From Nitrospirae bacterium MYbin3 (lineage in GTDB: Bacteria; Nitrospirota; Thermodesulfovibrionia; Thermodesulfovibrionales; Dissulfurispiraceae): 59,080 nucleotides of DNA. The stretch spans positions 124,001 to 183,080 of the forward strand of contig PEAD01000003.1 of NCBI GenBank assembly GCA_002753335.1, read 5' to 3'. This document shows, piece by piece, positions 39,396 through 59,059 of this stretch. The position numbers and the translations under genes were made by a program. The notes under the pieces were generated by a model. The model did not search any database and had not been told where the DNA came from. It worked only from the letters and a program-made list of their open reading frames with translations. Numbering within the stretch: position 1 is the first letter of the stretch; each line of letters starts with the position of its first letter.

Positions 39396-40046
39396 CTATG
39401 GAGCGGTGTGCTGCGTTGTGAATGTTGCTCCGTGTTTCGTTACGAACTGTGAATATAGATAGTTGTGGAATGCTGTCCAATTATTTGAATTGTTATACGT
39501 TGTATGTGCTTCACCTAATATATGATGCATAGTTGTTAAATCTAAAGAAGAACAAACATATTCGGCAACAGTAGTCAAGTTATTTCCAATTACTGCAGCA
39601 CCACCGCTTTGATCTGCTCCATAACTTGCAGTACCATAAACAGGCAAACAGTTAGTTGTTGTAGAAGAAGCAACACTTGTAGATGTTGTTCCGCCTGATG
39701 CTACAACCGCAACCGCAACTGCTGCTGCAACCGCAACTGCTGCTGCAATGGTTCCAGCACCAATTCCTGCTGCTGCTGCTGTTCCTGCTGCTGCGCCTGC
39801 TCCGGCTGCACCTGCTCCGGCTCCTGCAGCTCCACTTCCCGCACCGGCTCCAGCGCCTGATCCTGCTCCAGCACCACTTCCTGCACCGGCTCCACCACCT
39901 GATCCACCACTACCAGCACCTGCTGCGCTACCTTTTCCTGCTTCAGCGGCATATACCATTGTGGTATAGCCAGGCAACATAAAGGTACTCAGTACGAAGA
40001 TGCTGAAAAATACTAGAAAAATTCTTAAATCCAAAGTCTTTCTCAT
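39396..40046 (-). CDS. Exported Gly/Ala-rich low-complexity protein (YjbE/GfcA-like)
   Basis: AGGAGG RBS, signal peptide, GAGSGAG repeats, AAAVAVA hydrophobic stretch then TTSTS; directly downstream of yjbH. Confidence 0.7.
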   Translation of the reverse strand: MRKTLDLRIFLVFFSIFVLSTFMLPGYTTMVYAAEAGKGSAAGAGSGGSGGGAGAGSGAGAGSGAGAGAGSGAAGAGAGAAGAGAAAGTAAAAGIGAGTIAAAVAVAAAVAVAVVASGGTTSTSVASSTTTNCLPVYGTASYGADQSGGAAVIGNNLTTVAEYVCSSLDLTTMHHILGEAHTTYNNSNNWTAFHNYLYSQFVTKHGATFTTQHTAP

Positions 40047-43986: not shown

Positions 43987-44023
43987 GGGGAAAATTGCCC
44001 CGACATGTGTGGTAAAATTACCC
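43987..44023. promoter_or_regulatory. Tandem near-palindromic boxes, candidate upstream activator sites for a sigma-54 activator
   Basis: GGGAAAATTGCCC (43988-44000) and GGTAAAATTACCC (44011-44023), 23 bp apart, upstream of the -24/-12 promoter. Confidence 0.55.
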
Positions 44024-44076
44024 GTATGTTCTCGGCTTTATAACAGTATATGGTTGTTTTATCAGGATACTTTTTA

Positions 44077-44092
44077 TGGCACTAAAGTTGCA
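44077..44092 (+). promoter_or_regulatory. Sigma-54 (-24/-12) promoter
   Basis: TGGCAC-TAAAG-TTGCA matches the consensus TGGCAC-N5-TTGC(A/T). Confidence 0.85.
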
Positions 44093-44106
44093 TTTTCTGC
44101 CTACCT

Positions 44107-44520
44107 ATGGCCGAGGCAGTAAGAAAAATTCTTCTTTGCAGCCAGCATCCTATATTTATAAAAGGCGTTTATGGAGCGCTCAGTGATGCCGGATATCAAA
44201 TTGAAACGAGCGAACATCCTGCCGGTGCCGTAAGGTCTGTATTTGATTCTTATTATTCTGTAGTAATTATTGATTCCAGAGATATAGGCTTACAAGCCTC
44301 GGATGCTGCTATGATAATCAGGACCGTAAGGCCTGATATTCATGTTGTGTTAATCGGAAAGTCCATTGTTGCTGATGGGTTTTATTCTGTAGAAAATCCT
44401 GATGAGATAGAACGAATAAAAGAGATTGTATCAAACATCTCAATTTTACATATGAAAGAAGCAAATAAAGGAGGAGTTTATGAGCATGACGCCGAGAGAG
44501 ATTGTATTAAAAGCCTTTGA
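44107..44520 (+). CDS. Atypical receiver-like (CheY-fold) protein
   Basis: KILLCSQH...AGYQIE...VVIIDS...IRTVRPDIHVVLIG pattern; lacks the acidic DD pair; overlaps the next gene by 41 nt. Confidence 0.6.
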   Translation: MAEAVRKILLCSQHPIFIKGVYGALSDAGYQIETSEHPAGAVRSVFDSYYSVVIIDSRDIGLQASDAAMIIRTVRPDIHVVLIGKSIVADGFYSVENPDEIERIKEIVSNISILHMKEANKGGVYEHDAERDCIKSL

Positions 44521-45523
44521 GGGCGGAAAGCCCGAAAGGGTCCCTGTCACCCTTTTTGGTGGTGGGATGTGGTCTATAAAGGATTACGGAACCAGTTTTG
44601 AAGAGCTTTCCAATAATGTAGAAAAGATGGCTGATATGTGTATCGTGGAGGCAGAAAAGATTAAGAGCGACGTGGTGTATGTGGGGTCGGGTTTTAATAA
44701 TTTTCATATGATTGCGCTTGGTGAAAAGTTTGGGTGCGGCGTGAAATATCGGGAGATCGGCGCTCCTGATGTCACCTCTCATTTTGTAAATTCAGAGGAA
44801 GATCTTGCCAAGCTCGATATGGATGATATTCATAAACATCCTGTTGTTAAGACCGTGATGGACGCCACAAGACTGGTAAATCAAAAAATAGGCAAAAAGT
44901 ATCTTGTTACCATGACCTGCTGGGGCCCATTTACGTTGGCTGCCCGCCTGGTTGGTGAAGAAACATTTATGAAGGCAACATTTAAGAAGCCTGCCTTTGT
45001 CGAGAAGGCTGTAGATTTTTGCGCCGACCTTTTAATTAAGTTGTATGAACCATTGATTGCAGATGGCATGGAATGCATAAGCATAGCAGATCCGACCGCC
45101 TCTGGTGATTTAATAAACCCTAAACAGATGGGACGTTTTGCAGTGCCACCTTTAAAGAAGCTGAGCGACTGGGCCAAGTCGAAAAATGCCCATACAATAC
45201 TTCATATCTGCGGCAATACAGGTGACCGTCTTGAGCAGTTTATAGACACCGGCTGCAGCGTTATCTTTTTCGATCAGAAAGTTGATATAGCAAAGGCGCG
45301 AGACGTTCTTTTCGGCAAGATGTGTTTTGGAGGTAACGTTGCTCCTGTGCATGTTCTGTTGAACAAGACCGCAGCGGATGTAGAACAGGCCTGCAAAGAG
45401 GTTATAGAAATAGCCGGCAAGGATGGCGGCTTTATATTGGTTCCGGGCTGCGATATCCCACCTACAATAAGTTTTGAAAATATTAAGATGTTTCACGATG
45501 TTGCGTTGAACTGGAAATATTGA
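44480..45523 (+). CDS. MtaA/CmuA-family methylcobamide:thiol methyltransferase 1 (URO-D fold)
   Basis: PERVPV, GPFTLA, ADPTAS, Zn motif LHICG...PGCDIP, GNVAP; AAGGAGG RBS. Confidence 0.85.
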   Translation: MSMTPREIVLKAFEGGKPERVPVTLFGGGMWSIKDYGTSFEELSNNVEKMADMCIVEAEKIKSDVVYVGSGFNNFHMIALGEKFGCGVKYREIGAPDVTSHFVNSEEDLAKLDMDDIHKHPVVKTVMDATRLVNQKIGKKYLVTMTCWGPFTLAARLVGEETFMKATFKKPAFVEKAVDFCADLLIKLYEPLIADGMECISIADPTASGDLINPKQMGRFAVPPLKKLSDWAKSKNAHTILHICGNTGDRLEQFIDTGCSVIFFDQKVDIAKARDVLFGKMCFGGNVAPVHVLLNKTAADVEQACKEVIEIAGKDGGFILVPGCDIPPTISFENIKMFHDVALNWKY

Positions 45524-45587
45524 TCCCGAGGGGAGGTGAAGAGCAAGGGCAAAAGGGAGTCTATGACCCCGTGAGTGGGGAGGTAAA

Positions 45588-46094
45588 ATGGGACTTTTGG
45601 ATCGCATTAAAAATTTTCTGGCCGGAGAGCCGGACATTAAAGCAGAGGAGGAAAAGAGTATGGCGATGACTGCAGAACAAGTAAATGAGTACATGAAAGA
45701 GAAGTGCGGGTTTGTGCCGAGGATGTTTCAGATAATTAACACGGTAACACCTGATCCGGGCAAGACTTTTGCTGATTTTTATGCGAGTATCTTCGGCGAC
45801 GGCGCTCTTTCGAGGAAGCACAAAGAGCTTATGTTCATGGCGGGTGGAGTTGCTTACTGTTCACCGCGCTGCATAATTCATGTCATCCCTGCCGCCAATG
45901 CAGGAGCGACATGGAATGAGGTTTTTGAGGCTGCTGCTGTCGGAATGATACTGGGCGGCTTTGTTCCTGGCGGCCCCGGCATACCATACGCATTTGAGTA
46001 TGCTCTTAAGTGCCTCGATATATTCGATAAGTACAAAAAAGGCGAGAAGTGGGAATATCTTCCATCTCCTAAATTCGACCACGGCGTATTCTAA
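45588..46094 (+). CDS. Carboxymuconolactone decarboxylase/AhpD-like family protein
   Basis: GFVPRMF, DGALSRKHKELM, CSPRCIIH, AGATWNEVFEA...GG. Confidence 0.8.
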   Translation: MGLLDRIKNFLAGEPDIKAEEEKSMAMTAEQVNEYMKEKCGFVPRMFQIINTVTPDPGKTFADFYASIFGDGALSRKHKELMFMAGGVAYCSPRCIIHVIPAANAGATWNEVFEAAAVGMILGGFVPGGPGIPYAFEYALKCLDIFDKYKKGEKWEYLPSPKFDHGVF

Positions 46095-46233
46095 GGACAG
46101 GGAAAAAGCGTGTGCCGGATTAGTTCGGTGCACGCCCCAAAATAAAAGGGGCAGCGCCTCATGCAAAGGCAACTGCCCGTGAGAATAAGATACAAAAATA
46201 TTTTAGCATAAGTTAATGATGAAAGGAGATAGA

Positions 46234-47193
46234 ATGTTCAGTTTTCAGAAAGAACAAAAGGTTTTCAACTTTAGCGGCATTCCGGTCGGCGGCCAGCCGG
46301 GCGAAAACCCGCCGCTTATGATAGCCTCGCTTTTTCACAATAAAGACAGCGTAAGCAAGACCGACCGCAAGGGCAATTTTGATCGTGAGGGAACAAAGGC
46401 GATGCTTGCGAAGATGGAGGAACTGTCCGAGGCTACAGGTGTGCCTGCGATGGTTGCGATGGTTGCCAACAGCCCTGAAGAAGCCAAGACATATATTGAT
46501 TTTTATCTGGAATCCACCAAAATGCCTTTTGGCATAGATATGTGGGTGGCTGAGCAGCGTGCCAGGGCGACCGAGTATGTGGCGCAGCTTGGGGTGCAGG
46601 ACAAATTTCTTTACAACAGCATCACCCCTTGGGATAAGGATATCAAGGGACAGGTTCAAAGGCTGAAGGACTTGGGAATAAAGCATGTTGTGATACAGGC
46701 TTTTGATGATAAAGACCAGTCTCCTGCTGGAAGAGTAACTTCGCTCGAATCTATCATGTCTCAGGGCGCCGATTCATTTGAGACGATAATTGTGGATACC
46801 TCGGTTATGAACATGCCGTCAACCTCATTTTCTCTTGTAGCCAATAGGATGATAAAAGAGAAGTATGGTCTGCCCTGCGGAGGCGCATATTCAAACGGCA
46901 CTCACATGTGGGGCGAGATTAAGCAGAAATGGGGACTCGACGGGTTCAAGGCTATGGATGCTGTTGTTCAGGGAATGGGTTCTGCGCTTTGGTCCGATTT
47001 TAACTTCTGCGGTCCGGCGATTACGGCTCCGCGCGTTTTCCCTGCAGTTGCCAGCGCTCACATTCTGCTATCAACGCTTGTATATGACGAAACAGGAAAT
47101 ATTTATGACAATCCAAACCTGCCTATCAGAAAACATTTTGCCGACTTCATAACAAAAATGCAGGAAGGCGGCGGCAGGAAAAAAGCCAAATAA
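46234..47193 (+). CDS. MtrH-family methylcorrinoid:pterin (THF/H4MPT) methyltransferase
   Basis: MFSFQKEQKVF...VGGQPGENP, LYNSI, IKEKYGLPCGGA.SN, resembling MtrH/MtgA. ATG at 46234 after AAGGAG. Confidence 0.85.
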   Translation: MFSFQKEQKVFNFSGIPVGGQPGENPPLMIASLFHNKDSVSKTDRKGNFDREGTKAMLAKMEELSEATGVPAMVAMVANSPEEAKTYIDFYLESTKMPFGIDMWVAEQRARATEYVAQLGVQDKFLYNSITPWDKDIKGQVQRLKDLGIKHVVIQAFDDKDQSPAGRVTSLESIMSQGADSFETIIVDTSVMNMPSTSFSLVANRMIKEKYGLPCGGAYSNGTHMWGEIKQKWGLDGFKAMDAVVQGMGSALWSDFNFCGPAITAPRVFPAVASAHILLSTLVYDETGNIYDNPNLPIRKHFADFITKMQEGGGRKKAK

Positions 47194-47213
47194 CGAAAGG
47201 AGAATTTCATTCG

Positions 47214-48242
47214 ATGAATTCAAGAGAAAGGGTTTTAAAGGTTTTTAAGGGAGAGCAGGTTGACCGTGTTCCATGTTTCAGCGGTATGGGCAATATAACG
47301 GAGGCAGCAATAAACCAGCTGGGATATAAATTTGCGGGCATCCATCTTGACGCAAAAATGATGGCAGAGACCGCAGCATCAACATACAAGATGTTCGGCC
47401 TTGAGTGCGGCGTAGTTCCTGTAGATCTTTGTGTAGAGGCCGAGGCGCTCGGCTGTGTAATCAATGTCTATCCGCAGGCCGAAGGCATACTCTATCCCAC
47501 CATAAAAGAAAAGCTTATACACAACGAAGGCGAGATGGATTCGGTAAATATTCCGGCTGACCTTGGATCAAGGGGCAGAGTGCCTCTGCTGATGGAGGCT
47601 ATTAAACTGATGAAGGCTGACATAGGCAGCGATGTTGCTGTCGGCTCTTATGTATTGGGTCCATTTACTTTGGCTGGGCAGATAATGGAGCTTAATGACC
47701 TTCTTAAGCTGTCATTTAAAAAAGCGGACAAAGTGGCTAAACTGCTCGACCTTATGGCTGACGCCATAATAGTAGTGGCAAAAGAGTATGAGAAGGCCGG
47801 CATTGATTACATCACAGTGCGAGAGATGGGCGCCACTTCTGATGTTCTCAGCCCGAGGGTATTTAAAAACCTGATAATGCCTCCGCTCCAAAAGATAAGC
47901 AAGGAGCTTAAGGTGTTTTCGGTGCTTCATATCTGCGGCAAGACCAACGATATAGTTATTCCTATGGCCGAGGCCGGATATACGGCTATCAGTGTAGAGC
48001 AGAAGAACGATGTTGCAGAGACGAGGAAAAAACTTGGCCCCGGAGCGATTATTTTCGGAAACTACGATCCCTACAATGTCCTTGTTTCTGGCACCGAAGA
48101 TCTTGTGAGGAGTACCATGCGAAAATGCATAGACGATGGAGTGAGTGCGATATGGCCAGGCTGCGATATATGGCCTACTGTTCCACCCCAGAACATGAAG
48201 GCTATGATGGATGAAACCATAAAATACGGAGGTAAAAGCTAA
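47214..48242 (+). CDS. MtaA/CmuA-family methylcobamide:CoM methyltransferase 2
   Basis: VDRVP, PVDLCVEAEALGC, GRVP, GPFTLAG, LSPRVF, LHICG...PGCDI, GNYDP. Confidence 0.88.
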   Translation: MNSRERVLKVFKGEQVDRVPCFSGMGNITEAAINQLGYKFAGIHLDAKMMAETAASTYKMFGLECGVVPVDLCVEAEALGCVINVYPQAEGILYPTIKEKLIHNEGEMDSVNIPADLGSRGRVPLLMEAIKLMKADIGSDVAVGSYVLGPFTLAGQIMELNDLLKLSFKKADKVAKLLDLMADAIIVVAKEYEKAGIDYITVREMGATSDVLSPRVFKNLIMPPLQKISKELKVFSVLHICGKTNDIVIPMAEAGYTAISVEQKNDVAETRKKLGPGAIIFGNYDPYNVLVSGTEDLVRSTMRKCIDDGVSAIWPGCDIWPTVPPQNMKAMMDETIKYGGKS

Positions 48243-48925
48243 TGGCAGACGACGCAAAGAAAAAAGAGATTTACGAAAAACTCAGAAACGGTGTTATCCA
48301 GTATGACGAAGACGCCTGCAAGGAAGGAGCGCAGGAGGCTATAGACGCCGGTCTTGATGCGAATGAGGCTATATTTGACGGCCTTGTTTCGGGTATGGAA
48401 GAGGTGGGCAGGCTGTTTGAGGCACAGGAATATTTTGTTCCCGAAATACTGATGTGTGCCGACGCGCTCTACGCAGGGCTTGATATTCTGAAGCCGCACT
48501 GCAAGCAGATGGACCTTGGCGTAAAAGGCTCGGTGGTTATTGGAACTGTTGAAGGCGATGTGCATGATATAGGAAAGAACCTTGTTAAGATGATGTTTGA
48601 TGTTGCAGGATTTAATGTTTATGACTTGGGCAGGGATGTTCCGCTCGACAAGTTTGTTGAAGAACAGCTGAAGACCGATTCAGAACTCGTCTGCCTTTCT
48701 GCAATGATGACCACTTCTATGGTCGGTATGCCTAAGGTTATCGAGAAGATAAAAGAGAAAAACCCAAACTGCATGATAATGATCGGCGGCGCGCCTACAT
48801 CAAAGGAGCTTGCTGACAAATGGGGTGCTGACGGCTATGCCGAAGACGCAAGCAATGCGCTGAAAGAGGCTATTAAAATGGTGGCTTTCCTCAAGAAACT
48901 GAGGGACGAGAAGCTGAAAAAATAA
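48242..48925 (+). CDS. Methyltransferase cognate corrinoid protein (MtaC/MttC-like)
   Basis: Cap domain (GMEEVG.LFE..EYFVPE) and B12 motif GDVHDIGKN...LSAMMTT...IGGAP...GADGY. Confidence 0.95.
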   Translation: MADDAKKKEIYEKLRNGVIQYDEDACKEGAQEAIDAGLDANEAIFDGLVSGMEEVGRLFEAQEYFVPEILMCADALYAGLDILKPHCKQMDLGVKGSVVIGTVEGDVHDIGKNLVKMMFDVAGFNVYDLGRDVPLDKFVEEQLKTDSELVCLSAMMTTSMVGMPKVIEKIKEKNPNCMIMIGGAPTSKELADKWGADGYAEDASNALKEAIKMVAFLKKLRDEKLKK

Positions 48926-48929
48926 AACA

Positions 48930-49589
48930 TTGGTTGATGCTGCCCCGCTCAAACAACTGCTCAAGAAAGAAGGAGCGGCCCTTGTCGGCATAGGCGATAT
49001 CTCAAAGGCTCTGCCGCGTGAGATAAGGCATCTGAACCGAGGTGTTGCTATTGCTGTGAATCGTGGGTTGAACAAAGACAGCATAGATCTTTTGTGCGGG
49101 CTTCAGAGAAGTGCTGAGGACTGGATAAGAGAGTTGGGCTTTAAAAATCTATCAATCCCTCCTGACTCGGACAGGCGAACAGGGAAGCTGATAACAAGGC
49201 TTTATAAACTGTTCTGCCATAAGACGGCAGCAACCTGTTCAGGGCTTGGATGGATAGGCAAAAACGGTCTCATAATCAACAGCCGCTACGGCTCACAACT
49301 GTCTTGGGCAACTGTGCTTACCGATGCGCCGCTGAAAACGGATAAGGCTATAACCGACTCTGAATGCGGTGATTGCGAACTCTGTGTTAAGCATTGCCCA
49401 TCAGGGGCTTTAAAAGGCGGCAAATGGTCTCTGTCAGATCCATTAAAGCAGATGGTTTATTACGACAGATGCAAGGCATTAAAGAGCAACAGGCAAAGGT
49501 TTGACGAAAAGCCCAACTGCGGGCTGTGCGTTACTATCTGCCCTTATTCAAGGAAGAGCAGGAAAAAATCTATGAAGGAAAAAATATAG
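48930..49589 (+). CDS. QueG/reductive dehalogenase-like 2x[4Fe-4S] protein
   Basis: HKTAATCSGLGWIGKNGL, TVLTDAP, CGDCELCVKHCP, CGLCVTICP. Confidence 0.8.
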   Translation: MVDAAPLKQLLKKEGAALVGIGDISKALPREIRHLNRGVAIAVNRGLNKDSIDLLCGLQRSAEDWIRELGFKNLSIPPDSDRRTGKLITRLYKLFCHKTAATCSGLGWIGKNGLIINSRYGSQLSWATVLTDAPLKTDKAITDSECGDCELCVKHCPSGALKGGKWSLSDPLKQMVYYDRCKALKSNRQRFDEKPNCGLCVTICPYSRKSRKKSMKEKI

Positions 49590-49601
49590 GAGGATTTATA
49601 G

Positions 49602-51593
49602 ATGGCGCAAAAATTCAAGGTGATATTTCAGCCTGCAGGCAGGCGGGGAGAGATAGAAGAAGGCACAACAATACTTAAGGCGGCGCAGCAGTTAGGCGTT
49701 GACCTCGAAGCGCTTTGCGGAGACAAGAAGGTCTGCGGCAAATGCAAGGTCAGGATAGAGGAGGGATATTTTGAAAAGGACAATCTTGAGTCGGGCATGG
49801 CGCATATCACGCCGCTTGAGCCCACAACTGATGAGCTTAAGCATATCAAGCCCGAAGACGGTCCGGGCATAAGGCTGGCCTGCTCCTGCGAGATACACGG
49901 CGACCTGAAAGTTTTTGTGCCTGAACGTTCCAGAGCAGGAAAGCAGGTGGTGCGTAAAGCGGCCAAAGATATTATTATCGCTCTCGACCCGGCAGTCAAA
50001 AAATACACGCTGACGCTCACGCCGCCTACTCTGCATGACATGACCACCGGGGATTACGAGCGAATTGCAGCTGCTATGGAAAAGGACTACGGACTGAAGG
50101 GCCTTAAATTCGACTACTTGACGCTTAGGAGCACGCAGGATGCCTTGCGGGAAGGCGAATGGACGATTACCGTAACTGTATGGATGGACAAAGAGATAGT
50201 GAAGGTTGAGCCCGGACATGTGGATGTCTGCTACGGCCTTGCTGTAGATGTAGGCACAACCACCTGTGTAGGCTATCTTTGCGATCTTAGTACAGGCAAG
50301 GTTATCAACACTGAATCGATGATGAACCCTCAGGTGCCTTACGGAGAAGATGTAATGTCGCGCATAACTTATGCGATGACCAACCCGGAAGGGCTCAAAA
50401 CCATGCAGGACGCCATTATAACCGGCTTGAACGAAATAATAGACAAAGTAGTAAGCGAGGTAAGGAAAGACGGAGCAAATCCCGGATATTCTATTGACGA
50501 TCTGACGATAGTCTTTAATACCGCGATGCACCATATCTTTCTCGGCATGAATCCGACATATATAGGCCGTTCACCCTTCATACCTGCGGTGCAGCAATCT
50601 CTCGACATTAAAGCCCGTGATTTAGGGCTGCGCATCAATCCCGGTTCCTACATTCATGTGCTTCCTATAGAAGCCGGCTTTGTGGGTGCAGACAATGTGG
50701 GTGTTTTGATAGCTCAGGAGCCGTATAATCAGGACGAGAATGTTCTGATTATTGACATAGGAACCAATGGAGAACTTCTGCTCGGAAATAAAAATAGGGT
50801 TTGCTCTACATCATGCGCTACAGGACCGGCGTTTGAAGGCGCGCAGATAAAGTTCGGCATGAGGGCTGCGCCGGGCGCTATAGAAAAAGTGAAAATAGAT
50901 TACGAGACAAAAGAGCCTAAATATAAGGTTATCGGCAAGGCGGACTGGCACACTCATATTGAAGGTAAGATTAATGCCAAAGGCATATGCGGTTCGGCCA
51001 TAATTGATGTGATTGCAGAGATGTGCAAGGCAGGCATAATCGACAAGACCGGCAAGTTCGTTATGGATATTGGCACGAACAGGGTCAGAAAAGATGCTGA
51101 AGGTAAGCCTGAATATGTGCTTGCATGGGCTGAAGAAACCTCTATAAATGCTGACATAACGGTTACGCAGGGCGATGTCAGGGCGCTTCAGTTGGCCAAA
51201 GGCGCGCTGTACTGCGGCGCAAAGCTTATGATGAAAAAGATGGGCATAGAAAAACTGGACAGGGTTGAGCTTGCAGGCGCCTTCGGCAGCCATATTGACA
51301 GGGAGGCATCTTTGACGCTGGGCATGTTCCCTGATGTTCCGATCGACAAGGTTGTTGTTGTCGGAAATGCTGCTGGTGACGGCGCCCGGATGGCTCTTCT
51401 GAACAAAGGCAAGAGGATTGAGGCGGATGAACGCGCACGCTGGGTCGAGTTTGTGGAGATCGCAACAGACCCGACATTTGAGAAAGAATTCATGCAGGCT
51501 ATGCACATTCCGCACATGAAGGACAAATATCCGAACCTAAAGGCGCTGCTCGAGGAGCAAAAGGCGCCGATGGCGGCCAATATCAAGGGTTAG
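49602..51593 (+). CDS. ATP-dependent reductive activator of corrinoid proteins (RACo/RamA-like, ASKHA + 2Fe-2S)
   Basis: N-terminal C...CGKC...RLAC; DVGTTT, GEDVMSRI, GFVGAD, DIGTNGE, CATGPAFEG, GICGS, AGAFG, GNAA. Confidence 0.92.
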   Translation: MAQKFKVIFQPAGRRGEIEEGTTILKAAQQLGVDLEALCGDKKVCGKCKVRIEEGYFEKDNLESGMAHITPLEPTTDELKHIKPEDGPGIRLACSCEIHGDLKVFVPERSRAGKQVVRKAAKDIIIALDPAVKKYTLTLTPPTLHDMTTGDYERIAAAMEKDYGLKGLKFDYLTLRSTQDALREGEWTITVTVWMDKEIVKVEPGHVDVCYGLAVDVGTTTCVGYLCDLSTGKVINTESMMNPQVPYGEDVMSRITYAMTNPEGLKTMQDAIITGLNEIIDKVVSEVRKDGANPGYSIDDLTIVFNTAMHHIFLGMNPTYIGRSPFIPAVQQSLDIKARDLGLRINPGSYIHVLPIEAGFVGADNVGVLIAQEPYNQDENVLIIDIGTNGELLLGNKNRVCSTSCATGPAFEGAQIKFGMRAAPGAIEKVKIDYETKEPKYKVIGKADWHTHIEGKINAKGICGSAIIDVIAEMCKAGIIDKTGKFVMDIGTNRVRKDAEGKPEYVLAWAEETSINADITVTQGDVRALQLAKGALYCGAKLMMKKMGIEKLDRVELAGAFGSHIDREASLTLGMFPDVPIDKVVVVGNAAGDGARMALLNKGKRIEADERARWVEFVEIATDPTFEKEFMQAMHIPHMKDKYPNLKALLEEQKAPMAANIKG

Positions 51594-51914
51594 ATGACGA
51601 AGGTCAGAATAAATCCGGGAGCCTGCGGGCTCCCGGCTGTCGTAGAGATAGAGAAGAAGGACTCAAAGACTTACGCTCTTAAGGTCACCTCCGAATGCCC
51701 GATGGTAGAAAAATTGGGAGCGGAGGTTCCGGAGCTTACGATGATGGATGCTTTTAAAAGATTTCAGGACAATCCTGTTTATTCAAAAGGTGCGATATGT
51801 CTGAAGCATGTTGCCTGTCCTGTACCGTCCGGAATATTGAAGGCGCTGGAGGTTGAGGCTGGGCTGAATGTGCCGAAGGACGCAAGTATAGTATTTGAAA
51901 AGAAATTAGGTTAA
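51594..51914 (+). CDS. Small Cys-containing protein (DUF6951-like)
   Basis: INPGACG, SECPMV, CLKHVACPVPSGILKALEVEAGL. Confidence 0.7.
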   Translation: MTKVRINPGACGLPAVVEIEKKDSKTYALKVTSECPMVEKLGAEVPELTMMDAFKRFQDNPVYSKGAICLKHVACPVPSGILKALEVEAGLNVPKDASIVFEKKLG

Positions 51915-51923
51915 ACTGGGAAG

Positions 51924-52622
51924 GTGAATCTGACCGGCATTATCCTGACATCCGCTTTATATATTGCGCTGCTTTTTTTTATTGGTGGAGTAATAGGACG
52001 TCTTATTATTTACTCAGAAGTTTCTACCGCAAATGGGACGCATAGTTTAAAGCGCCGTCCTCTATTTTTTTCGAGGATGTCGTCTATATTTTCGGAACTG
52101 TTTTTGCTTAAAAGGCTTATGAAGGCCAATCCTTTGCTTTGGGTCGGAGAGTGGCTGTTTCACATCTCTTTTGCTTTTGTTCTTTTGAGGCATCTGCGTT
52201 ATTTTATTGAGCCTGCGCCTGCGTGGCTTTTCGATTTCGATGTGTTTGGAATTATTTCGGGATTCATGCTTTTTTCCTCTCTGGTCTTTATTCTTGCGGT
52301 TAAGATGTTTATTGAAAGGGCTTATTTTTCTTCGTATAATTTTTCTTTGCTCGCACTGCTTGTTTTTATCAGCGTGACAGGGCTTTTGATGAACATGATT
52401 CTTAAAACCGATCTTGTCGAGATAAAGTTTTTCGCGATGGGAATAGCAACTTTTACGCCTCAGTCTTTACCAGTCAGCAGTATCTTTTTTACTCATTTTT
52501 TCTCCTTTATTATTTTTATTTTGCTTTTGCCTAGCCATATTTTTACTGCTCCAATAACTATATTAGAAGCCTTCAGGCGAGATGAAGATATTAAGACGAT
52601 AATGCATGATGAAAAAAAATAA
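51924..52622 (+). CDS. NarI/DsrM-like membrane cytochrome b
   Basis: About five TM segments; WLFH-x9-HLRYF as in DsrM/HmeC; second His pair TH...SH. Confidence 0.75.
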   Translation: MNLTGIILTSALYIALLFFIGGVIGRLIIYSEVSTANGTHSLKRRPLFFSRMSSIFSELFLLKRLMKANPLLWVGEWLFHISFAFVLLRHLRYFIEPAPAWLFDFDVFGIISGFMLFSSLVFILAVKMFIERAYFSSYNFSLLALLVFISVTGLLMNMILKTDLVEIKFFAMGIATFTPQSLPVSSIFFTHFFSFIIFILLLPSHIFTAPITILEAFRRDEDIKTIMHDEKK

Positions 52623-53826
52623 CTCTTTCACGAAAGACCTTTCGGCGCAGCAGCGCATCGAGATTGATGCCTGCACACAGTGCGGCGAATGCCTGAAATG
52701 CTGCCCTGTTCAGGAGGTTACCGGCAAACCAAAAATATCACCTCCCGAAAAAATGCGCATGTTCAGAGAGTTTATCAAAGCCACAGATGGCATGAAATCA
52801 AGGCTTTTCGGGCAGTCGGAGATTGATAAAGAACTTCTTGAGGATTTTACCAAAGCTGTTTATGAATGCACAGTCTGCGGAGCCTGCGGCGAAGCCTGCA
52901 CTGTTGGAATACACACGCAGAGGCTCTGGCCGATGCTGCGCAGGGAAATGGTCAAGAGGGGTTTGGGGCCGCTAGGTGTTCAGACAAAGATGCAGGAGGT
53001 CATAACGAACACAGGCAACCCGTACAACAAGCCTGCTTCTGAGCGCTTCAGTCCTTGGTTTCCTGCGCATGTTAGCGTTGAGGAAAAAGCGGAGATAGCC
53101 TACTACGCAGGATGCACAGGTGTTTATGAGGCGCAGCCTATGGTCAAAGGAGATGTGCTGATCTTAGGCGCATCGGGCGTTCCGTTTACAATGCTGCCAC
53201 CTGAAGATGAGGTCTGCTGCGGCTTTCCGTTGTTTATCACCGGCCAGCACGATATGCTGGAAGGACTTGTGAAAAGGCTCGTTGACGCTTACGCTGTGAG
53301 AGGAGTGAAGACACTGGTCTGCTCCTGCCCCTGCTGCGTGAATATCATGGCGAGGGACTGGCCTGCTTTTTACGGCAAGGAACTGCCTTTCAAAATACGC
53401 CACATATCACAGTTTACTATTGATGCGCTGAATAGCGGCGCATTGCGCTTTAAGAGAGAGTTGAACGAGCGCCTAATTTACCATGACCCTTGCTATCTCT
53501 CCAGAGGTGTCGGAGTCATAGAAGAACCGAGGTCTGTGCTGCGGAGCATCCCGGGGGTTGAGCTTGTTGAGTTCGAGCGCCATGGCATGGATTCAAGGTG
53601 CTGCGGCTCCGGAGGCGCGGCAAGAAAGGTCTTTCATGACAACGCCATAGCCATGGGAAGGCTTGCAATAGATGAGGCTGTGGCAAAAAAGGCTGACAGG
53701 CTTATACTTGCATGTCCTGCCTGCTATGCTAAAGTTAATGAAGCTATGTCTGACCACGATAAAAAGATAAAGATCACTGATATAATGGAACTTGCAGCAG
53801 AAATGATTGATTGCGGGGAGAGATGA
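52606..53826 (+). CDS. HdrD-like Fe-S oxidoreductase (2x[4Fe-4S] + 2 CCG domains)
   Basis: CTQCGECLKCCP, CTVCGACGEAC, GNP, YYAGC, EVCCG, CPCC, YHDPC, RCCG, CPAC. Confidence 0.88.
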   Translation: MMKKNNSFTKDLSAQQRIEIDACTQCGECLKCCPVQEVTGKPKISPPEKMRMFREFIKATDGMKSRLFGQSEIDKELLEDFTKAVYECTVCGACGEACTVGIHTQRLWPMLRREMVKRGLGPLGVQTKMQEVITNTGNPYNKPASERFSPWFPAHVSVEEKAEIAYYAGCTGVYEAQPMVKGDVLILGASGVPFTMLPPEDEVCCGFPLFITGQHDMLEGLVKRLVDAYAVRGVKTLVCSCPCCVNIMARDWPAFYGKELPFKIRHISQFTIDALNSGALRFKRELNERLIYHDPCYLSRGVGVIEEPRSVLRSIPGVELVEFERHGMDSRCCGSGGAARKVFHDNAIAMGRLAIDEAVAKKADRLILACPACYAKVNEAMSDHDKKIKITDIMELAAEMIDCGER

Positions 53827-55085
53827 GCCATTTCAACATAAGATGCAGAGCGTGCGGAAAGAGTTTAGAACATGTTTACTGCGCTTTTTGCGAACACTGC
53901 AAAGATGCTCTTCTCGTAACCGAATACCACGACAAACTATTTTCCGAAAAAGATTCAGCCGGTATCTGGAAATACAACTGGCTTCCTGTGCATTTATCCA
54001 GCTTTGAACAACCCGGTCCGGTGGTTTATAAATCAGAAGAGCTTGCGGACGAACTCGAACTGAGAAATCTTTATATAGTCTTCAACGGGTATTGGCCCGA
54101 AAGAGGTGCGTTTATAGAAACCTGCACCTTCAAGGAATTTGAGGCTGCTGTGGTTTTGCAGAACGCAATCGACAACGGAATCGAAGGCCTGACAGTGGCG
54201 TCTGCCGGAAACACCGCAAGGGCATTTGCTCATCTCTCTTCAATCTCAGGCTTCCCTGTTCTTATAGTAGTGCCGAGGATGTGCCTTTCTGAAATGTGGT
54301 ATCTCGAAAGCCATACGGGGATTTCTACTTTTGTTGTGGGTGACGGCGACTATTCTAATGCTATAGATGTGGCAAAGAGGATTGCTATGGCATCTGGTAT
54401 GCCGTTTGAAGGAGGCACCAAGAATATTGCCAAGAGGGACGGGCTTGGCATTGTGATGCTTGAGGCTGTATCGAAAATAGGCAGGCTTCCGGACCACTAT
54501 TTTCAGGCTGTCGGTAGCGGAGCCGGAGCTGTCGGCGTATGGGAAATGTGCGAAAGGTTTTTGAGGGACGGACGCTTCGGTTCCAGTTTTCCGCAGATGC
54601 ATCTTGCCCAAAACGCGCCTTTTGCTCCTATGGTCAAGGCTTGGCTGAAGGGCAGCCGCAGTCTGTTTGCAGAAGATTTAAGACCTGAACTTATAGGCGA
54701 AATTTCTACAAGGGTTCTTTCAAGCAGGTATCCCGCCTACAGCGTTAAGGGCGGTGTTTATGACGCGCTTACCGCGACAAACGGAATGACCTACGGTATA
54801 AGGAACGAGGATGTATTTGTTGCACAGAATATATTTCACGCTGCCGAGGGGATAGATGTTGTGCCTGCCGCAGGCGTTGCTGTCGCAGCGCTGATGAGCG
54901 CAGTGAATTCTGGAGCTGTTCGCAAAAACGATACTATCCTGCTTAATATAACCGGCGGCGGAGAGAAGCATTTCAAAGACAAGAACAAGGCCCATATGCT
55001 CTCCGAGCCTGTTTTCGTGTCAAAAGACATTACCGATGATGATATGGAGAAACTGCTATGCGATACCCTGAAAAAGAACTCATAG
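53823..55085 (+). CDS. Cysteate synthase (threonine-synthase-related PLP enzyme, Methanosarcina type)
   Basis: FNGYWPERGA, TCTFKEFEA, ASAGNTARAF, EGGTKNIAKRDG, PDHYFQAVGSG, AQNAPF, LNITGGG; ATGA overlap with the upstream stop. Confidence 0.87.
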   Translation: MSHFNIRCRACGKSLEHVYCAFCEHCKDALLVTEYHDKLFSEKDSAGIWKYNWLPVHLSSFEQPGPVVYKSEELADELELRNLYIVFNGYWPERGAFIETCTFKEFEAAVVLQNAIDNGIEGLTVASAGNTARAFAHLSSISGFPVLIVVPRMCLSEMWYLESHTGISTFVVGDGDYSNAIDVAKRIAMASGMPFEGGTKNIAKRDGLGIVMLEAVSKIGRLPDHYFQAVGSGAGAVGVWEMCERFLRDGRFGSSFPQMHLAQNAPFAPMVKAWLKGSRSLFAEDLRPELIGEISTRVLSSRYPAYSVKGGVYDALTATNGMTYGIRNEDVFVAQNIFHAAEGIDVVPAAGVAVAALMSAVNSGAVRKNDTILLNITGGGEKHFKDKNKAHMLSEPVFVSKDITDDDMEKLLCDTLKKNS

Positions 55086-56200
55086 GCATTCTTCAGGCGG
55101 CAGGCGTTGATTTCACCTGCTCGCTTCCGTGCGAGAAGATCAAGATTCTACTCGAAATGATTCAGGATAATTTTACCCATATCCCTCTTACGAGAGAAGA
55201 GGAGGGGGTGGGGATATGCGCTGGGGCTGCTCTTTCTGGACGTAAACCCGCAATGTTTGTGCAGAGTTCGGGCATCGGCAATATGATCAATGCCTTGCTT
55301 TCGTTGACCGGATTTTATGAGCTGCCGCTTGCTATCTTTGTAAGCCAGCGCGGCATTTATAAAGAAAAGATAGCTGCCCAGTTTCCGATGGGAAGGAATC
55401 TAACAGGGATTTTAGAGGGAGCGAAAATAGGTTATACGCTTATTCACAGGCGTGTGGATTTCAAAGTCATAAAGAGAAAACTGGACTCGATTTATAAGTT
55501 CGGAAAGATTCATGTTTTTTTAATTAGTCCTGCCGTATGGGAAAATTCTGAGGCGATAAGCAAAGGCATATCGGTTCAGCCGCATGAGAGAAGAACAGGC
55601 TTGGACAGTTTTCCCTGCACGCTGCATCCTGTTTCTCCGCCTGCCTTTACGCGTTATGAACTGCTTGGGGGCATAGCTCCATTTCTGTCTTCAAAAGTTG
55701 TTGTATGCAACTTGGGTTTTCCTGCAAAGGAAGTTTATGAGATTAAGCATCAGCCGTCTAATTTTTATATGCTCGGCAGCATGGGGCTTGCGACCTCGAT
55801 CGGCCTCGGCATAAGTCTGACAACAAAAAGAGAAGTTGTGGTTATAGATGGCGACGGCAGTATCCTTATGAACCCAGGAGGATTGGCAACCGCAGCTTAC
55901 AGCAATCCCCAAAACCTTACTATTATTGCGATCGACAACGGGGCTTACGGTTCAACCGGAAGCCAGCCTACGCTTGCCGGTTCATGCGTTGACTTGGAGC
56001 TTCTGGCTAAAGGCTTTGGGATAAGCAACACCATAAAAGTTTCTAAAATGAAGCAGCTCTCTGATGCTCTGAAAAAACATAAGCACGGGCTGTTTTTTGT
56101 CCATGCCCTCGCTATTCCGGGCAACCGTGATGTTCCGAATATACCTATAACTCACATCGAGATCAAAAAATCAGTCCAGAAATTTCTGAGTAAAAAGTAA
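55058..56200 (+). CDS. comDE: Sulfopyruvate decarboxylase, fused alpha/beta subunits
   Basis: ComD half: SLPCE, TREEEGVGICAG, QSSGIGNMINALLSL. ComE half: NLGFPAKE, NFYMLGSMG, TPP motif GDGS...DNG, YGSTG.QPT. Confidence 0.9.
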   Translation: MRYPEKELIGILQAAGVDFTCSLPCEKIKILLEMIQDNFTHIPLTREEEGVGICAGAALSGRKPAMFVQSSGIGNMINALLSLTGFYELPLAIFVSQRGIYKEKIAAQFPMGRNLTGILEGAKIGYTLIHRRVDFKVIKRKLDSIYKFGKIHVFLISPAVWENSEAISKGISVQPHERRTGLDSFPCTLHPVSPPAFTRYELLGGIAPFLSSKVVVCNLGFPAKEVYEIKHQPSNFYMLGSMGLATSIGLGISLTTKREVVVIDGDGSILMNPGGLATAAYSNPQNLTIIAIDNGAYGSTGSQPTLAGSCVDLELLAKGFGISNTIKVSKMKQLSDALKKHKHGLFFVHALAIPGNRDVPNIPITHIEIKKSVQKFLSKK

Positions 56201-56245
56201 CGGCTTCGTTGAATAGATTCTTTTTTGCATGTTAGTATTAAGCAA

Positions 56246-56944
56246 ATGCGTATAACTCTTATAATTGCTTTGTTGCTTCTAGGTTTCTCCACGGTCAGCG
56301 GCGAGATATTTAAATACCAGTCTGACGAGGGAGTTGCATATTTTACCAATGCTGCAGTGGGAAACAAGGACAGGCCTGCTGCCGGAGAGTCCAAGTCCTC
56401 GGCCGTAAGGATTAACCCCAAACAGTATGCGGCTTTAAACAAAAGTTTTTTTCATGACATAGCGGAAGAGAAGGCACGGGAGCATAATATTGATCCTGAA
56501 CTGGTTAAGGCTGTGATAAAGGCAGAATCCAACTGGAATCCTGTTGCGGTGTCGAGGAAAGGCGCGCGCGGTCTTATGCAGCTGATGCCTTCAACAGCGG
56601 CTGATTTAGGTGTTTTAAATTCTTTTAATCCTGAAGAGAATATAGACGGCGGTATAAGGTATCTGAAGTATCTGCTTGAACGCTTCAACGGCAACCTTAT
56701 GCTTGCGCTTGCAGCTTATAATGCCGGGCCTAATCTTGTTGACAGGATAAAGAGCGTTCCGGCAATACCAGAAACAGTTTCTTATGTTCGGCGGATTATC
56801 AGGGATTATTCTGGCAGCGGTTATGGCAGCCGGTCTGCTATGACTGCGGTGAAAGGCTCTAACGGAGACAGGATACACAAGATAGTCAACAAAGACGGAA
56901 CGATACTTCTCACAAATACATACGCAGGAAAGCAAGAACTCTAA
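56246..56944 (+). CDS. Soluble lytic transglycosylase (SLT domain)
   Basis: AVIKAESN, GARGLMQLMP, AAYNAG, ETVSYV; N-terminal signal sequence. Confidence 0.92.
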   Translation: MRITLIIALLLLGFSTVSGEIFKYQSDEGVAYFTNAAVGNKDRPAAGESKSSAVRINPKQYAALNKSFFHDIAEEKAREHNIDPELVKAVIKAESNWNPVAVSRKGARGLMQLMPSTAADLGVLNSFNPEENIDGGIRYLKYLLERFNGNLMLALAAYNAGPNLVDRIKSVPAIPETVSYVRRIIRDYSGSGYGSRSAMTAVKGSNGDRIHKIVNKDGTILLTNTYAGKQEL

Positions 56945-56945
56945 G

Positions 56946-57932
56946 ATGCCTGTTGATCAGCAGTCTATTGTTGATGAGATACTGAGGCTCAAGAGCGAAA
57001 GAAACGCCGTAATCATTGCCCACAACTACCAGCGCGACGAAGTTCAGGACATTGCCGACCATACAGGCGATTCCCTTGAGCTGTCACGCATTGCCTCCGA
57101 AATCGACTGCTCTGTCATAGTTTTTTGCGGAGTGCATTTTATGGCAGAGAGCGCTTCAATATTATCACCGCAAAAAACGGTTCTTTTGCCTGAGTTGACT
57201 GCCGGATGTCCTATGGCGGACATGGTTCAGGTTAAGGGCATGCGTGAGGTGAAGAAAACATTTCAGGGTTATGAGGCGCAGCCTGTGTTTGCTTTTTCTC
57301 ACGAGTTTTCCCTTTTGGATATGAAGGCTGAACACCCGGGAGTTCCTGTTGTAGCGTATGTGAACACAACCGCTGAGGTGAAGGCTCACAGCGATATCTG
57401 CTGCACCTCTGCGAATGTGGTTAAGATTATAGAATCGCTGCCGGGTGATACCGTAATCTGCATACCTGATAAAAACCTTTCTGCATGGGCCGCTAAAAAC
57501 ACTAAAAAGAAAGTTATCGCATGGGACGGTTTCTGCCATGTGCATGACCGCATTACGGTCAAGGATGTTGAGAAAGCTAGAGCCGAACATCCAGACGCGC
57601 TTTTGATGGCGCATCCTGAATGCAGGATAGAAGTGCTTGAAGCTGCGGACCATGTTACAAGCACTTCAGGTATGCTCAGATTTGCGAAGGTATCCGATGC
57701 AAAAGAGTTTGTGGTCGGAACAGAAGTTGGGTTGATGCACCGGTTGAGAAAAGAAAATCCGGACAAGATTTTTCATGCCCTAAGAAACGATATGGTCTGT
57801 CCAAATATGAAAAAGACTACATTGAACAGCATCTATCTTGCGCTTAAAGAGATGAATCCGGTTGTTAAAGTTCCGGAAGATATAAGAGTTCAGGCAAAGA
57901 AGTCTCTCGACAGGATGCTGGCAGTCAAGTAG
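56946..57932 (+). CDS. nadA: Quinolinate synthase
   Basis: AHNYQ, GDSLELS, FCGVHFMAE, GCPMA, YVNT, CHVH, AHPEC, CPNMK. Confidence 0.96.
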   Translation: MPVDQQSIVDEILRLKSERNAVIIAHNYQRDEVQDIADHTGDSLELSRIASEIDCSVIVFCGVHFMAESASILSPQKTVLLPELTAGCPMADMVQVKGMREVKKTFQGYEAQPVFAFSHEFSLLDMKAEHPGVPVVAYVNTTAEVKAHSDICCTSANVVKIIESLPGDTVICIPDKNLSAWAAKNTKKKVIAWDGFCHVHDRITVKDVEKARAEHPDALLMAHPECRIEVLEAADHVTSTSGMLRFAKVSDAKEFVVGTEVGLMHRLRKENPDKIFHALRNDMVCPNMKKTTLNSIYLALKEMNPVVKVPEDIRVQAKKSLDRMLAVK

Positions 57933-59059
57933 TGTCTTTTCTCTCCGAAAAAATTCTTCAAAAAATAAAAAGCAGCGGGCCGATAAGTTTCGAGTCGTTT
58001 ATGGAAATGGCGCTATATTATCCTGAGCTTGGCTACTATTCAAGGCCTGGGGCTGTAGTAGGTCGGTCAGGCGATTTTTATACATCTGCACATCTGCACA
58101 AACTTTTTGGAGCAATGCTCGGAAAACAGATGATAGAAATGTGGATACATCTGGGGCAGCCCAAAATTTTTAACATAGTCGAGATGGGCGCGGGCATGGG
58201 TCTTTTGGCAAAGGACATGCTCGATTATCTTAAGGCTCACGAAATCTTTGACCGTCTGAAATACAGCATAGTAGAGATTAGCCCTACTTTAAGACAAAAA
58301 CAGGCAGAGACTCTTGCTGAATATCAGGATAAGATTCTATGGTTTGACCGTATCGAATCGCTGCATGATTTTGAAGGCTGTCTGTTTTCGAATGAACTGC
58401 TTGATGCCTTTCCTGTTAGGCTTGTTCAGATGGATGATGGTGTATTCAAGGAGGTAATGGTTTCTGAAGAAGGTGGAACTTTTCGCGAAACCCTTGCTCC
58501 CTGCGATGATGATACTCAGAAATATATAGACAGATTTTTTTTGCAGGATGGAGAAACCTTCCATGATGGCTACAGGACAGAAATCAACCTGGGTGTGAAA
58601 GAATGGCTCGAAACCTTGAGCAGAAAGCTTTTGCGAGGTTTCGTGATGACTATAGATTACGGTTATCCGGTTTGGGACTATTACAGTCAGCGACGCAACA
58701 GAGGAACGCTTCTCTGCTATCACAGGCACAGGGTCAATGAAAAACCTTATCAGAATATAGGGGAGCAGGACATCACCGCGCATATCAATTTCTCTTCGTT
58801 AAAGGTCTGGGGTGAAGCTCTGGAATTGAAGACTATCGGTTTTTGTCCTCAGGGCACCTATCTCGTCTCTCTCGGACTGGATGAGGCTATAAAGGAATTT
58901 TACGGAGAAGAGCCTGCAACCGGACTGCTTTTGAATCTGAAAGCTCTTATTTTGCCTGAAGGAATGGGTATGAGTCATAAAGTGATGATTCAGTATAAGG
59001 GTGAGAGGATACCGCCTCTAAGGGGCTTTTCTTTTCGCAACGAAGCAGACAGGCTTTAG
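57932..59059 (+). CDS. MidA/NDUFAF7-family SAM-dependent methyltransferase
   Basis: FMEMALY...GYY, GDFYTS, EMGAG.G, SNELLDAFP, IDYG, QDITAHINF. Confidence 0.92.
   Translation: MSFLSEKILQKIKSSGPISFESFMEMALYYPELGYYSRPGAVVGRSGDFYTSAHLHKLFGAMLGKQMIEMWIHLGQPKIFNIVEMGAGMGLLAKDMLDYLKAHEIFDRLKYSIVEISPTLRQKQAETLAEYQDKILWFDRIESLHDFEGCLFSNELLDAFPVRLVQMDDGVFKEVMVSEEGGTFRETLAPCDDDTQKYIDRFFLQDGETFHDGYRTEINLGVKEWLETLSRKLLRGFVMTIDYGYPVWDYYSQRRNRGTLLCYHRHRVNEKPYQNIGEQDITAHINFSSLKVWGEALELKTIGFCPQGTYLVSLGLDEAIKEFYGEEPATGLLLNLKALILPEGMGMSHKVMIQYKGERIPPLRGFSFRNEADRL

Follow-up and report, generated by a model that had tools for sequence, protein, structure and literature searches.

In the genome of Nitrospirae bacterium MYbin3, we identified a run of 13 open reading frames (ORFs) that places genes for methyl transfer to a thiol, a heterodisulfide reductase (Hdr)-like membrane pair, and two enzymes of coenzyme M (CoM) precursor synthesis behind a sigma-54 promoter. 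The run lies in a 59,080-nucleotide stretch of contig PEAD01000003.1 (positions 124,001 to 183,080; hereafter, the window), where all 13 ORFs are present on the + strand between positions 44107 and 56200. The operon is real, and it is conserved across the phylum Nitrospirota and in mcr-less archaea; its gene content, gene order, joint inheritance, and catalytic motifs can be read directly from the genomes. By our estimate, there is an even chance that it encodes a soluble folate-corrinoid-CoM methyl hub that mainly oxidizes methyl-sulfur compounds, with an HdrDE-like pair as its link to the membrane.

The methyltransferase module and the CoM-precursor (com) genes are inherited together. Among 401 genomes of the phylum, a cysteate synthase ortholog was found in 71, an MtrH ortholog in 75, and an HdrD ortholog in 69; cysteate synthase and MtrH occur together in 69 genomes, cysteate synthase alone in 2, MtrH alone in 6, and neither in 324. 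Of the 78 genomes that have at least one of the three markers, 64 have all of them. There are eight mismatches between the first two markers; in G090, G225, G267, and G275 a contig edge cuts the locus off, and G272 carries the genes with a frameshift. In 51 of the 69 genomes mtrH lies upstream of cysteate synthase on the same contig and strand and within 16 kb, and both modules form one run in 18 of 20 fetched loci from the phylum, so the synteny of the com and methyltransferase genes implied by the initial annotation of this DNA holds in relatives. Three genomes (G011, G041, and G053) retain both modules on separate stretches. At closer range, cysteate synthase orthologs occur in 18 of 61 near relatives and MtrH orthologs in 19, which include those 18, and presence is patchy within families (in the host's own, for instance, 7 of 36 genomes have the MtrH ortholog). 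The distance matrices of six operon genes from 29 loci correlate at 0.34 to 0.72, and conservation is highest in the methyltransferase module (mean p-distance, 0.22 to 0.26 versus 0.31 to 0.41). One metagenome-assembled genome (MAG) carries duplicate cysteate synthase, MtrH-like, and HdrD-like genes (G188:C16 and G188:C40).

Among named records, those nearest to the host are MAGs labeled Nitrospirae and Thermodesulfovibrionales. A look-up of the whole host genome (G000; 93.7% complete) for mcr, Wood-Ljungdahl, and dsr genes, as the initial annotation had proposed, found dsrAB, folD, metF, and acsB, the last in a cooS-acsBCDE-like run as read from ORF starts; mcrA was not found in this genome. 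Within the 61-genome set, acsB is present in all 19 genomes with the methyltransferase module.

The initial annotation treated the system as purely bacterial, a view that did not survive, as mcrA-negative archaea carry the same set. Two archaeal MAGs, labeled Hydrothermarchaeota and Methanobacteriota, together hold orthologs of MtaA2 (52% identity), MtaA1 (45 to 46%), the CMD protein (60%), the MtrH-like protein (40%), RACo (58%), the corrinoid protein (63%), and the HdrD-like protein (37 to 38%), plus cysteate synthase (cys) and comDE, and in G447 mtaA2, corrinoid, RACo, mtrH, cys, and comDE genes form one run in that order. Neither mcrA nor MMP16 was found in either MAG, for which completeness is not given. 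Hydrothermarchaeota with mtrH but no mcr were noted by Carr et al. (2019; PMC6775978), who wrote that methyl-CoM might meet an alternate fate in them.

TABLE 1 Features of the operon, with window coordinates and the matches behind each assignment
Feature	Position	Strand	Basis
Sigma-54 -24/-12 promoter consensus TGGCACTAAAGTTGC	44077..44091	+	Upstream of first gene
Degenerate receiver-like protein	44107..44520	+	Weak NCBIfam receiver matches only
MtaA1, UroD-fold Zn thiol methyltransferase (predicted)	44480..45523	+	PF01208; below all NCBIfam cut-offs
CMD/AhpD-like protein, predicted thiol/disulfide partner	45588..46094	+	PF02627
MtrH-family pterin:corrinoid methyltransferase, predicted tetrahydrofolate (H4folate)	46216..47193	+	NF002142, 319 bits vs cut-off of 287
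MtaA2, methylcobamide:thiol methyltransferase, predicted CoM user	47214..48242	+	PRK06252, 260.7 vs 244
Corrinoid protein, DxHxxG motif	48242..48925	+	PF02310 + PF02607; TIGR02370, 212 vs 215
QueG/RdhA-like 2x[4Fe-4S] protein	48930..49589	+	PF13484 (Fer4_16)
RACo/AcsV-type ATP-dependent corrinoid reductive activase	49602..51593	+	PF14574, PF17651, PF17650, PF00111
DUF6951, predicted small metal-binding protein	51594..51914	+	PF22263; C11, C35, H72, and C75 in 45/45
NarI/DsrM/HdrE-like membrane cytochrome b	51924..52622	+	DsrM model, 56 bits vs 300 (NCBIfam only, weak)
HdrD-like FeS protein, two ferredoxin and two complete five-Cys CCG motifs	52606..53826	+	PF02754 x2
Cysteate synthase (Methanosarcina MA3297 type)	53811..55085	+	TIGR03844, 468 bits vs cut-off of 325
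Fused sulfopyruvate decarboxylase ComDE (thiamine pyrophosphate enzyme)	55058..56200	+	ComD, 179 vs 148; ComE, 216.6 vs 221.5

Pfam and NCBIfam searches agreed with the family names first given to the genes, the first gene having weak receiver matches only. The two MtaA-like proteins keep putative zinc ligands throughout their orthologs (H242/C244/C324 of MtaA1 in 37 of 37; H239/C241/C317 of MtaA2 in 42 of 42), and a His-Cys-Cys ligand set marks sulfur and selenium methyltransferases (Kountz and Balskus, PMC10418091). Both enzymes retain the zinc site of sulfur methyltransferases, and the initial proposal of a thiol as methyl acceptor is backed by these ligands together with the closeness of MtaA2 to MtaA of Methanosarcina mazei. 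That protein is the best sequence match of MtaA2 in the PDB and the best fold match of its model (predicted local distance difference test score, 90.8; 4AY7/4AY8; template modeling score, 0.91 to 0.92), and MtaA2 passes the methylcobalamin:CoM methyltransferase subfamily PRK06252 while missing the MtaA and MtbA equivalogs. The MtaA pocket is lined by T28, Q29, R70, L75, Q94, and A201 (PMC13618148). Upon alignment, R70 corresponds to V67 of MtaA2 and A201 to R203, which is invariant (36 of 36); an anion-binding arginine may therefore have been relocated to the R203 position, if one assumes that R70 binds the sulfonate in MtaA, whose sulfonate-binding residues were not found in the open text. 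MtaA1 has no arginine at either equivalent position, which fits a neutral substrate, and we predict a small neutral thiol or methyl sulfide. A quick tree of 49 rows (hand-picked from 150 representatives plus local sequences, with CmuC omitted and only CmuA and HemE as named references) placed MtaA1 and MtaA2 in separate clades, each with an archaeal ortholog, and CmuA outside both on a long branch. A third, unlinked MtaA-like protein of the host (G000:C62:49463-50482) groups with MtaA1; in G249 and G090, MtaA-like genes of similar identity come right behind comDE, on the other strand.

The MtrH-like protein passes its broad subfamily only, falling below the MtrH and MtgA equivalogs, and its PDB relatives are 8Z9U and 6SJ8, the latter a folate methyltransferase. 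A natural fusion, P0362, joins an MtrH-like domain (46% identical to the operon's) to MtaA2 (55%), which ties the folate arm to MtaA2. The corrinoid protein is the only one of MtaC type found in the host genome. Its activase is of RACo/AcsV type and not a RamA (AcsV model, 474 bits; RamA, 117 bits); the host has two more RACo paralogs (C50:94532-96529 and C41:77450-78925) despite its single MtaC-type corrinoid protein. In the CMD protein, whose best PDB match is AhpD (5DIK), the motif C91-x3-C95-x2-H98 keeps C95 and H98 in 41 of 41 orthologs and C91 in 36 of 41, and the QueG-like protein, with PDB matches to QueG and PceA, keeps eight cysteines in 41 to 43 of 43. The receiver-like gene comes first in many relatives (27 to 82% identity) and is missing from some. 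The methanol methyltransferase (MT-I) MtaB was found in 0 of 61 genomes and the trimethylamine MT-I MttB was not found in the one genome searched (G000), no search being made for MtmB or MtbB. Methanol or trimethylamine use was rejected on this basis, and the substrate side is then left to an MtaA-like enzyme.

The membrane pair carries the motif set of HdrDE, with two ferredoxin motifs, two five-Cys CCG motifs, and a four-His cytochrome b partner; the ten CCG cysteines are kept in 42 of 42 HdrD orthologs and the four histidines in 33 of 33 cytochrome b orthologs. Neither protein reaches any family cut-off, the best NCBIfam matches of the HdrD-like protein being TfrB (190 versus 385) and DsrK (96 versus 400). 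Where the run splits (G001 and G308), this pair stays with cys-comDE.

For CoM synthesis, the suggestion that this bacterium makes CoM or a related thiol held for the precursor genes and not for the last step. The cysteate synthase model TIGR03844 was matched by Methanosarcina acetivorans only among 14 control genomes, and ComDE missed the ComE cut-off by 5 bits, with the phosphonopyruvate decarboxylase model at 201 versus 312.5. MMP16/ComF (TIGR03287), the known last CoM-synthesis enzyme, exceeded its cut-off in 0 of 61 genomes, and its back-up L-ASST (PF01837) was not found in the 93.7% complete host genome; among seven archaeal-side genomes, no MMP16 match passed the cut-off and one was partial (144 bits; G424). 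In M. acetivorans, MMP16 is the main CoM synthase, with a back-up that is possibly non-orthologous or uncatalyzed, and cysteate aminotransferase is a non-specific enzyme (PMC12068725).

A candidate to fill the final step, judging by fold and distribution, is an unlinked host protein of SsuA/THI5 fold (G000:C61:2231-3130; L148), which lacks a signal peptide and is annotated as an ATP-binding cassette (ABC) binding protein. It occurs in 17 of the 18 cysteate synthase genomes of the 61-genome set and in 0 of the 43 others, has four invariant histidines in its N-terminal half, and has a fold similar to that of TauA and SsuA, of a binding protein with bound Zn, and of the enzyme THI5. In archaeal relatives the gene sits after comDE: all 14 SsuA-fold matches among 81 relatives of G416 adjoin com genes, 13 directly after comDE and one divergently beside cysteate synthase. 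Among 51 SsuA-fold loci of at least 6 kb, comDE is present in 23 and a permease in 1 (judged against a single reference). On metagenome contigs the gene also has methanogenesis marker 8 and mfnA as neighbors, so that probable methanogens carry the protein too; a role as strict MMP16 replacement is thus not supported (MMP16 was not searched for in those contigs), and the protein may be a general CoM-linked binding or channeling protein. In G006, where this cytoplasmic protein was not found, an ABC importer is inserted ahead of cysteate synthase and no comDE was detected after it in the fetched stretch (L025), possibly reflecting a switch from synthesis to import.

We infer the operon's product, substrates, direction, and disulfide partner as follows. 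Cysteate synthase, a general aminotransferase, and ComDE would yield sulfoacetaldehyde, to which sulfur might be added by the SsuA/THI5-fold protein, by the QueG-like FeS protein, or by uncatalyzed chemistry, giving CoM or a close sulfonate thiol that would serve as methyl carrier. The single corrinoid protein, which RACo would maintain in the Co(I) state, would be a three-way hub: the MtrH-like protein would work with H4folate, MtaA2 with CoM, and MtaA1 with a small thiol, for example methanethiol; methyl-H4folate would then enter the Wood-Ljungdahl pathway's methyl branch. The HdrDE-like pair would link the quinone pool by electron exchange to the CoM thiol/disulfide, which could be a homodisulfide or a mixed disulfide that includes the CMD cysteine. 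Sulfur-to-folate methyl transfer is uphill by roughly 30 kJ/mol, and methyl-pterin-to-CoM transfer amounts to about -30 kJ/mol for tetrahydromethanopterin; the uphill reaction could be drawn forward if the Hdr-like pair removes the thiol that is set free. A CoM-like thiol is probably made and methylated by this system, and, granted that much, catabolic use of methyl-sulfur substrates is the likely purpose.

The genes that accompany the operon in relatives point to folate one-carbon (C1) flux and to a small molecule that is sensed and imported: folD lies inside the run in eight loci (two partial) and metF just upstream in five, and an ABC importer with a signal-peptide-bearing NMT1/SsuA-type binding protein and a chemoreceptor lie inside the run in five loci each. 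Sigma-54 activators with sensor kinases, a second Hdr-like pair, and single DsrE-like or OsmC-like genes are also seen. A divergent CobW-type GTPase gene was confirmed by Pfam in nine loci; the host has an unlinked one (G000:C34:13330-14214; 58% identical), a possible zinc or cobalt chaperone. Several loci have an ORF of approximately 200 amino acids without a Pfam match just after comDE on the opposite strand (L106:17062-17664 and similar), which has an unlinked 41% match in the host (G000:C14:35225-35833).

Several observations weigh against the methyl-sulfur hub. Its weakest point is that MtaA1 and MtrH with one corrinoid protein would suffice for methyl sulfide demethylation, leaving the need for CoM unexplained; we propose that the Hdr-like pull on the uphill transfer supplies that need. 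With neither MMP16/ComF nor L-ASST found, no known route reaches CoM, and MtaA2 lacks the Arg70 and Gln29 of the MtaA pocket (numbering of PMC13618148). CCG proteins serve non-disulfide roles too, the best PDB sequence match of the HdrD-like protein is an "iron-sulfur-binding reductase," and an HdrD ortholog was not found in 5 of the 71 cysteate synthase genomes. True exceptions to the pairing are three genomes of genus g107, plus G034 (88% complete) of the 61-genome set: they keep the methyltransferase module, and neither cysteate synthase nor comDE was found in them. For comDE, the correlation of pairwise distances with mtaA2 and with mtrH is only modest (0.34 to 0.35), and we attach no P value to the co-occurrence because kin genomes are not independent. 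As a separate observation, in g107 loci L124, L126, and L127 the Hdr-like and com genes are replaced by radical S-adenosylmethionine (SAM), SAM methyltransferase, and B12 radical-SAM genes.

The hub might run in reverse, with methyl-H4folate from the Wood-Ljungdahl pathway methylating CoM, from which sulfide or homocysteine would take the methyl group to form methanethiol (a sulfide sink) or methionine. Such a transfer is downhill and needs no ion pump, and the presence of acsB in all 19 module genomes agrees with it, as does the host genome, in which neither a MetH nor a MetE domain was found. Core methionine synthase families are described in PMC7857596. Across the 61 genomes of the order, however, a MetH homocysteine domain was found in 1, a MetE catalytic domain in 3, and neither in 57, so that most of the 42 operon-less genomes need another route, which suggests an unrecognized methionine synthase in the order. 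A general methionine synthase role is weakened, and the importers and chemoreceptors inside the run, together with sigma-54 control, fit an external substrate; we regard the reverse direction as rather unlikely. It is also unlikely, to a slightly greater degree, that the sulfonate produced is not CoM but, for instance, isethionate, sulfoacetate, taurine, or a different sulfonated thiol, with the methyltransferases using a different thiol such as the CMD cysteine. The missing ComF (0 of 61) and L-ASST (host genome), the MtaA2 pocket, and the four genomes with the module in which the com pair was not found speak for such a product, but no aldehyde reductase, dehydrogenase, or aminotransferase family was found in the run by Pfam, the com genes are inherited almost perfectly with thiol methyltransferases in bacteria and archaea alike, and M. 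acetivorans itself has a back-up for MMP16.

Two further explanations change the substrate or the purpose of the thiol. A methyl halide or methyl-selenium substrate, as in the cmu, mec, cdm, and type 1 mlp systems, with CoM as trap or side acceptor, would suit the set of two MtaA-like proteins, an MtrH-like protein, and a corrinoid protein with folD and metF, which resembles cmuBCA and, presumably, the mec cassette. The His-Cys-Cys site fits selenium too (PMC10418091), yet CmuA is only 24% identical to MtaA2 and falls outside both clades, albeit on a long branch, CdmB is zinc-free (PMC13222342), the absence of a folate methylase is part of how type 1 clusters are defined, and com and Hdr-like genes are not mentioned with those clusters in the available text; we consider this substrate class improbable. 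Still less probable is a CoM that buffers redox state as glutathione does and is recharged by the HdrDE-like pair, with the methyltransferases merely rescuing methylated CoM. Such a buffer would account for the AhpD-like CMD protein and for the retention of the cytochrome b-HdrD pair beside cys-comDE, and the title of one paper states that comDE overexpression shields methanogens from oxidative stress (PMC12713407, title only). On the other hand, the methyltransferase module is both the most conserved part of the operon and the first behind the sigma-54 promoter, and C1 flux is indicated by the inserted folD, metF, and chemoreceptor genes.

The closest known systems are those of Methanosarcina. 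The type 2 (phosphoserine) CoM cluster of M. acetivorans (cs MA3297, comDE MA3298, and MMP16 MA3299) likewise has adjacent cysteate synthase and fused ComDE genes, whereas in our operon these stand at the end of a bacterial methyltransferase run, and MMP16, L-ASST, and mcrA were not found. With the soluble CoM methyltransferases (MtaA, MtbA, MtsA, and MtpA) and HdrDE, the operon shares the zinc His-Cys-Cys set, the MtaA fold, a corrinoid protein and activase, and the layout of a cytochrome b with a two-CCG protein; it differs in that no MtaB, MttB, or MCR was found, a soluble MtrH-like folate arm takes the place of the Na+-pumping Mtr, equivalog cut-offs are missed, and the pocket arginine appears moved from position 70 to the Ala201 position of MtaA. 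The operon would work like this set but is not a member of it (no MCR, MT-I, or ComF found). Type 1 mlp clusters (Kountz and Balskus, PMC10418091) share several MtaA-like proteins, a corrinoid protein, a Ram/RACE activase, non-methanogen hosts, and a proposed sulfur or selenium chemistry, but are defined by having no folate methylase within 20 kb, unlike the present run with its MtrH-family gene; the text of that paper has no mention of nitrospir, cysteate, comD, or sulfopyruvate.

The chloromethane and dichloromethane systems (cmuBCA, mec, and cdm) share the layout of an MtaA/CmuA-like protein, a corrinoid protein, and a folate methyltransferase with folD nearby, where we take cmuB to be MtrH-like and the mec likeness is likewise presumed. 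A fetched cmu region showed cmuA, a cmuC-like gene, and folD and no com or Hdr genes. CmuA is an MtaA-like protein fused to a corrinoid domain, whereas these are separate genes in our operon, and orthology to CmuA is ruled out by the low identity and the tree position; Cdm, for its part, is without zinc (PMC13222342). Xanthobacter autotrophicus Py2 (XcbA-E; PMC9457059) also uses CoM, in aerobic epoxide carboxylation, but makes it by unrelated enzymes and a phosphoenolpyruvate-based route, its genome having no archaeal CoM pathway genes save a ComA homolog; characterized bacterial CoM use is, according to the same source, confined to aerobic alkene metabolism with this unrelated pathway. No description of our operon was found in the open literature, subscription journals and supplements being outside the search (pathway tables of MAG papers may list the genes), nor in the available text of PMC13222342, PMC8906906, PMC11631310, PMC9635834, PMC8065059, or bioRxiv 10.64898/2026.04.28.721461.

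The layout of the locus agreed with the initial annotation, which had described co-directional, mostly abutting or overlapping genes behind a consensus sigma-54 promoter and between bacterial flanks. All 13 genes were recovered; 10 of the 12 junctions overlap or have gaps of 20 nucleotides (nt) or less, the other two gaps being 64 and 121 nt. The promoter consensus is one of 26 such sites genome-wide and is kept in relatives, TGGC-N7-TTGC occurring upstream in 29 of 42 scored loci versus 0.77 expected from shuffles (four loci were dropped for short flanks, one was counted twice, and one was mis-sliced), and sigma-54 activator genes adjoin the operon copies of several relatives. Domain searches confirmed the flanking hrcA-grpE-dnaK, yjbH, L,D-transpeptidase, and SLT genes. 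Just downstream of yjbH is a 216-amino-acid ORF (window 39396-40046, - strand) with a long Gly/Ala/Ser low-complexity stretch.

Directly 3' of comDE follow slt, nadA, and a SAM methyltransferase gene (56225-59059, + strand; gaps of 24, 1, and -1 nt); since these abut, the 3' end of the operon is not fixed at comDE, and read-through into them is possible. Scans for terminators and sigma-70 sites found them no more often than in shuffles and did not set the 3' limit. Among the fetched loci, the slt, nadA, and SAM methyltransferase neighbors are common to G001 only, a genome of the same genus (L068 and L021) with the same neighbors at both operon ends. The contig is therefore not the archaeal/bacterial chimera that had been considered, and a binning artifact is likewise ruled out, as the block recurs among differing neighbors elsewhere.

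If our interpretation is correct, the archaeal CoM route and methyl-CoM chemistry are present in about one in six sampled Nitrospirota (71/401) without methane formation, and the SsuA/THI5-fold protein offers a candidate for the last step of CoM synthesis. Matches to mtaA, comDE, and hdrD in metagenomes should accordingly not be taken as markers of methanogens. The same gene set in mcr-less archaea makes the fate of methyl-CoM raised by Carr et al. (PMC6775978) testable with a few purified enzymes. A more far-reaching proposal, which we find doubtful, is that mcr-less bacteria and archaea share a complete CoM methyl cycle with a new final enzyme of solute-binding-protein fold, a soluble folate-to-CoM methyltransferase replacing the ion-pumping Mtr, and a membrane Hdr-like complex conserving energy from the oxidation of the CoM thiol. 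If true, the system would be the missing route by which sulfate reducers oxidize methyl sulfides anaerobically, and it would also be the "alternate fate" of methyl-CoM in archaea that are not methanogens.

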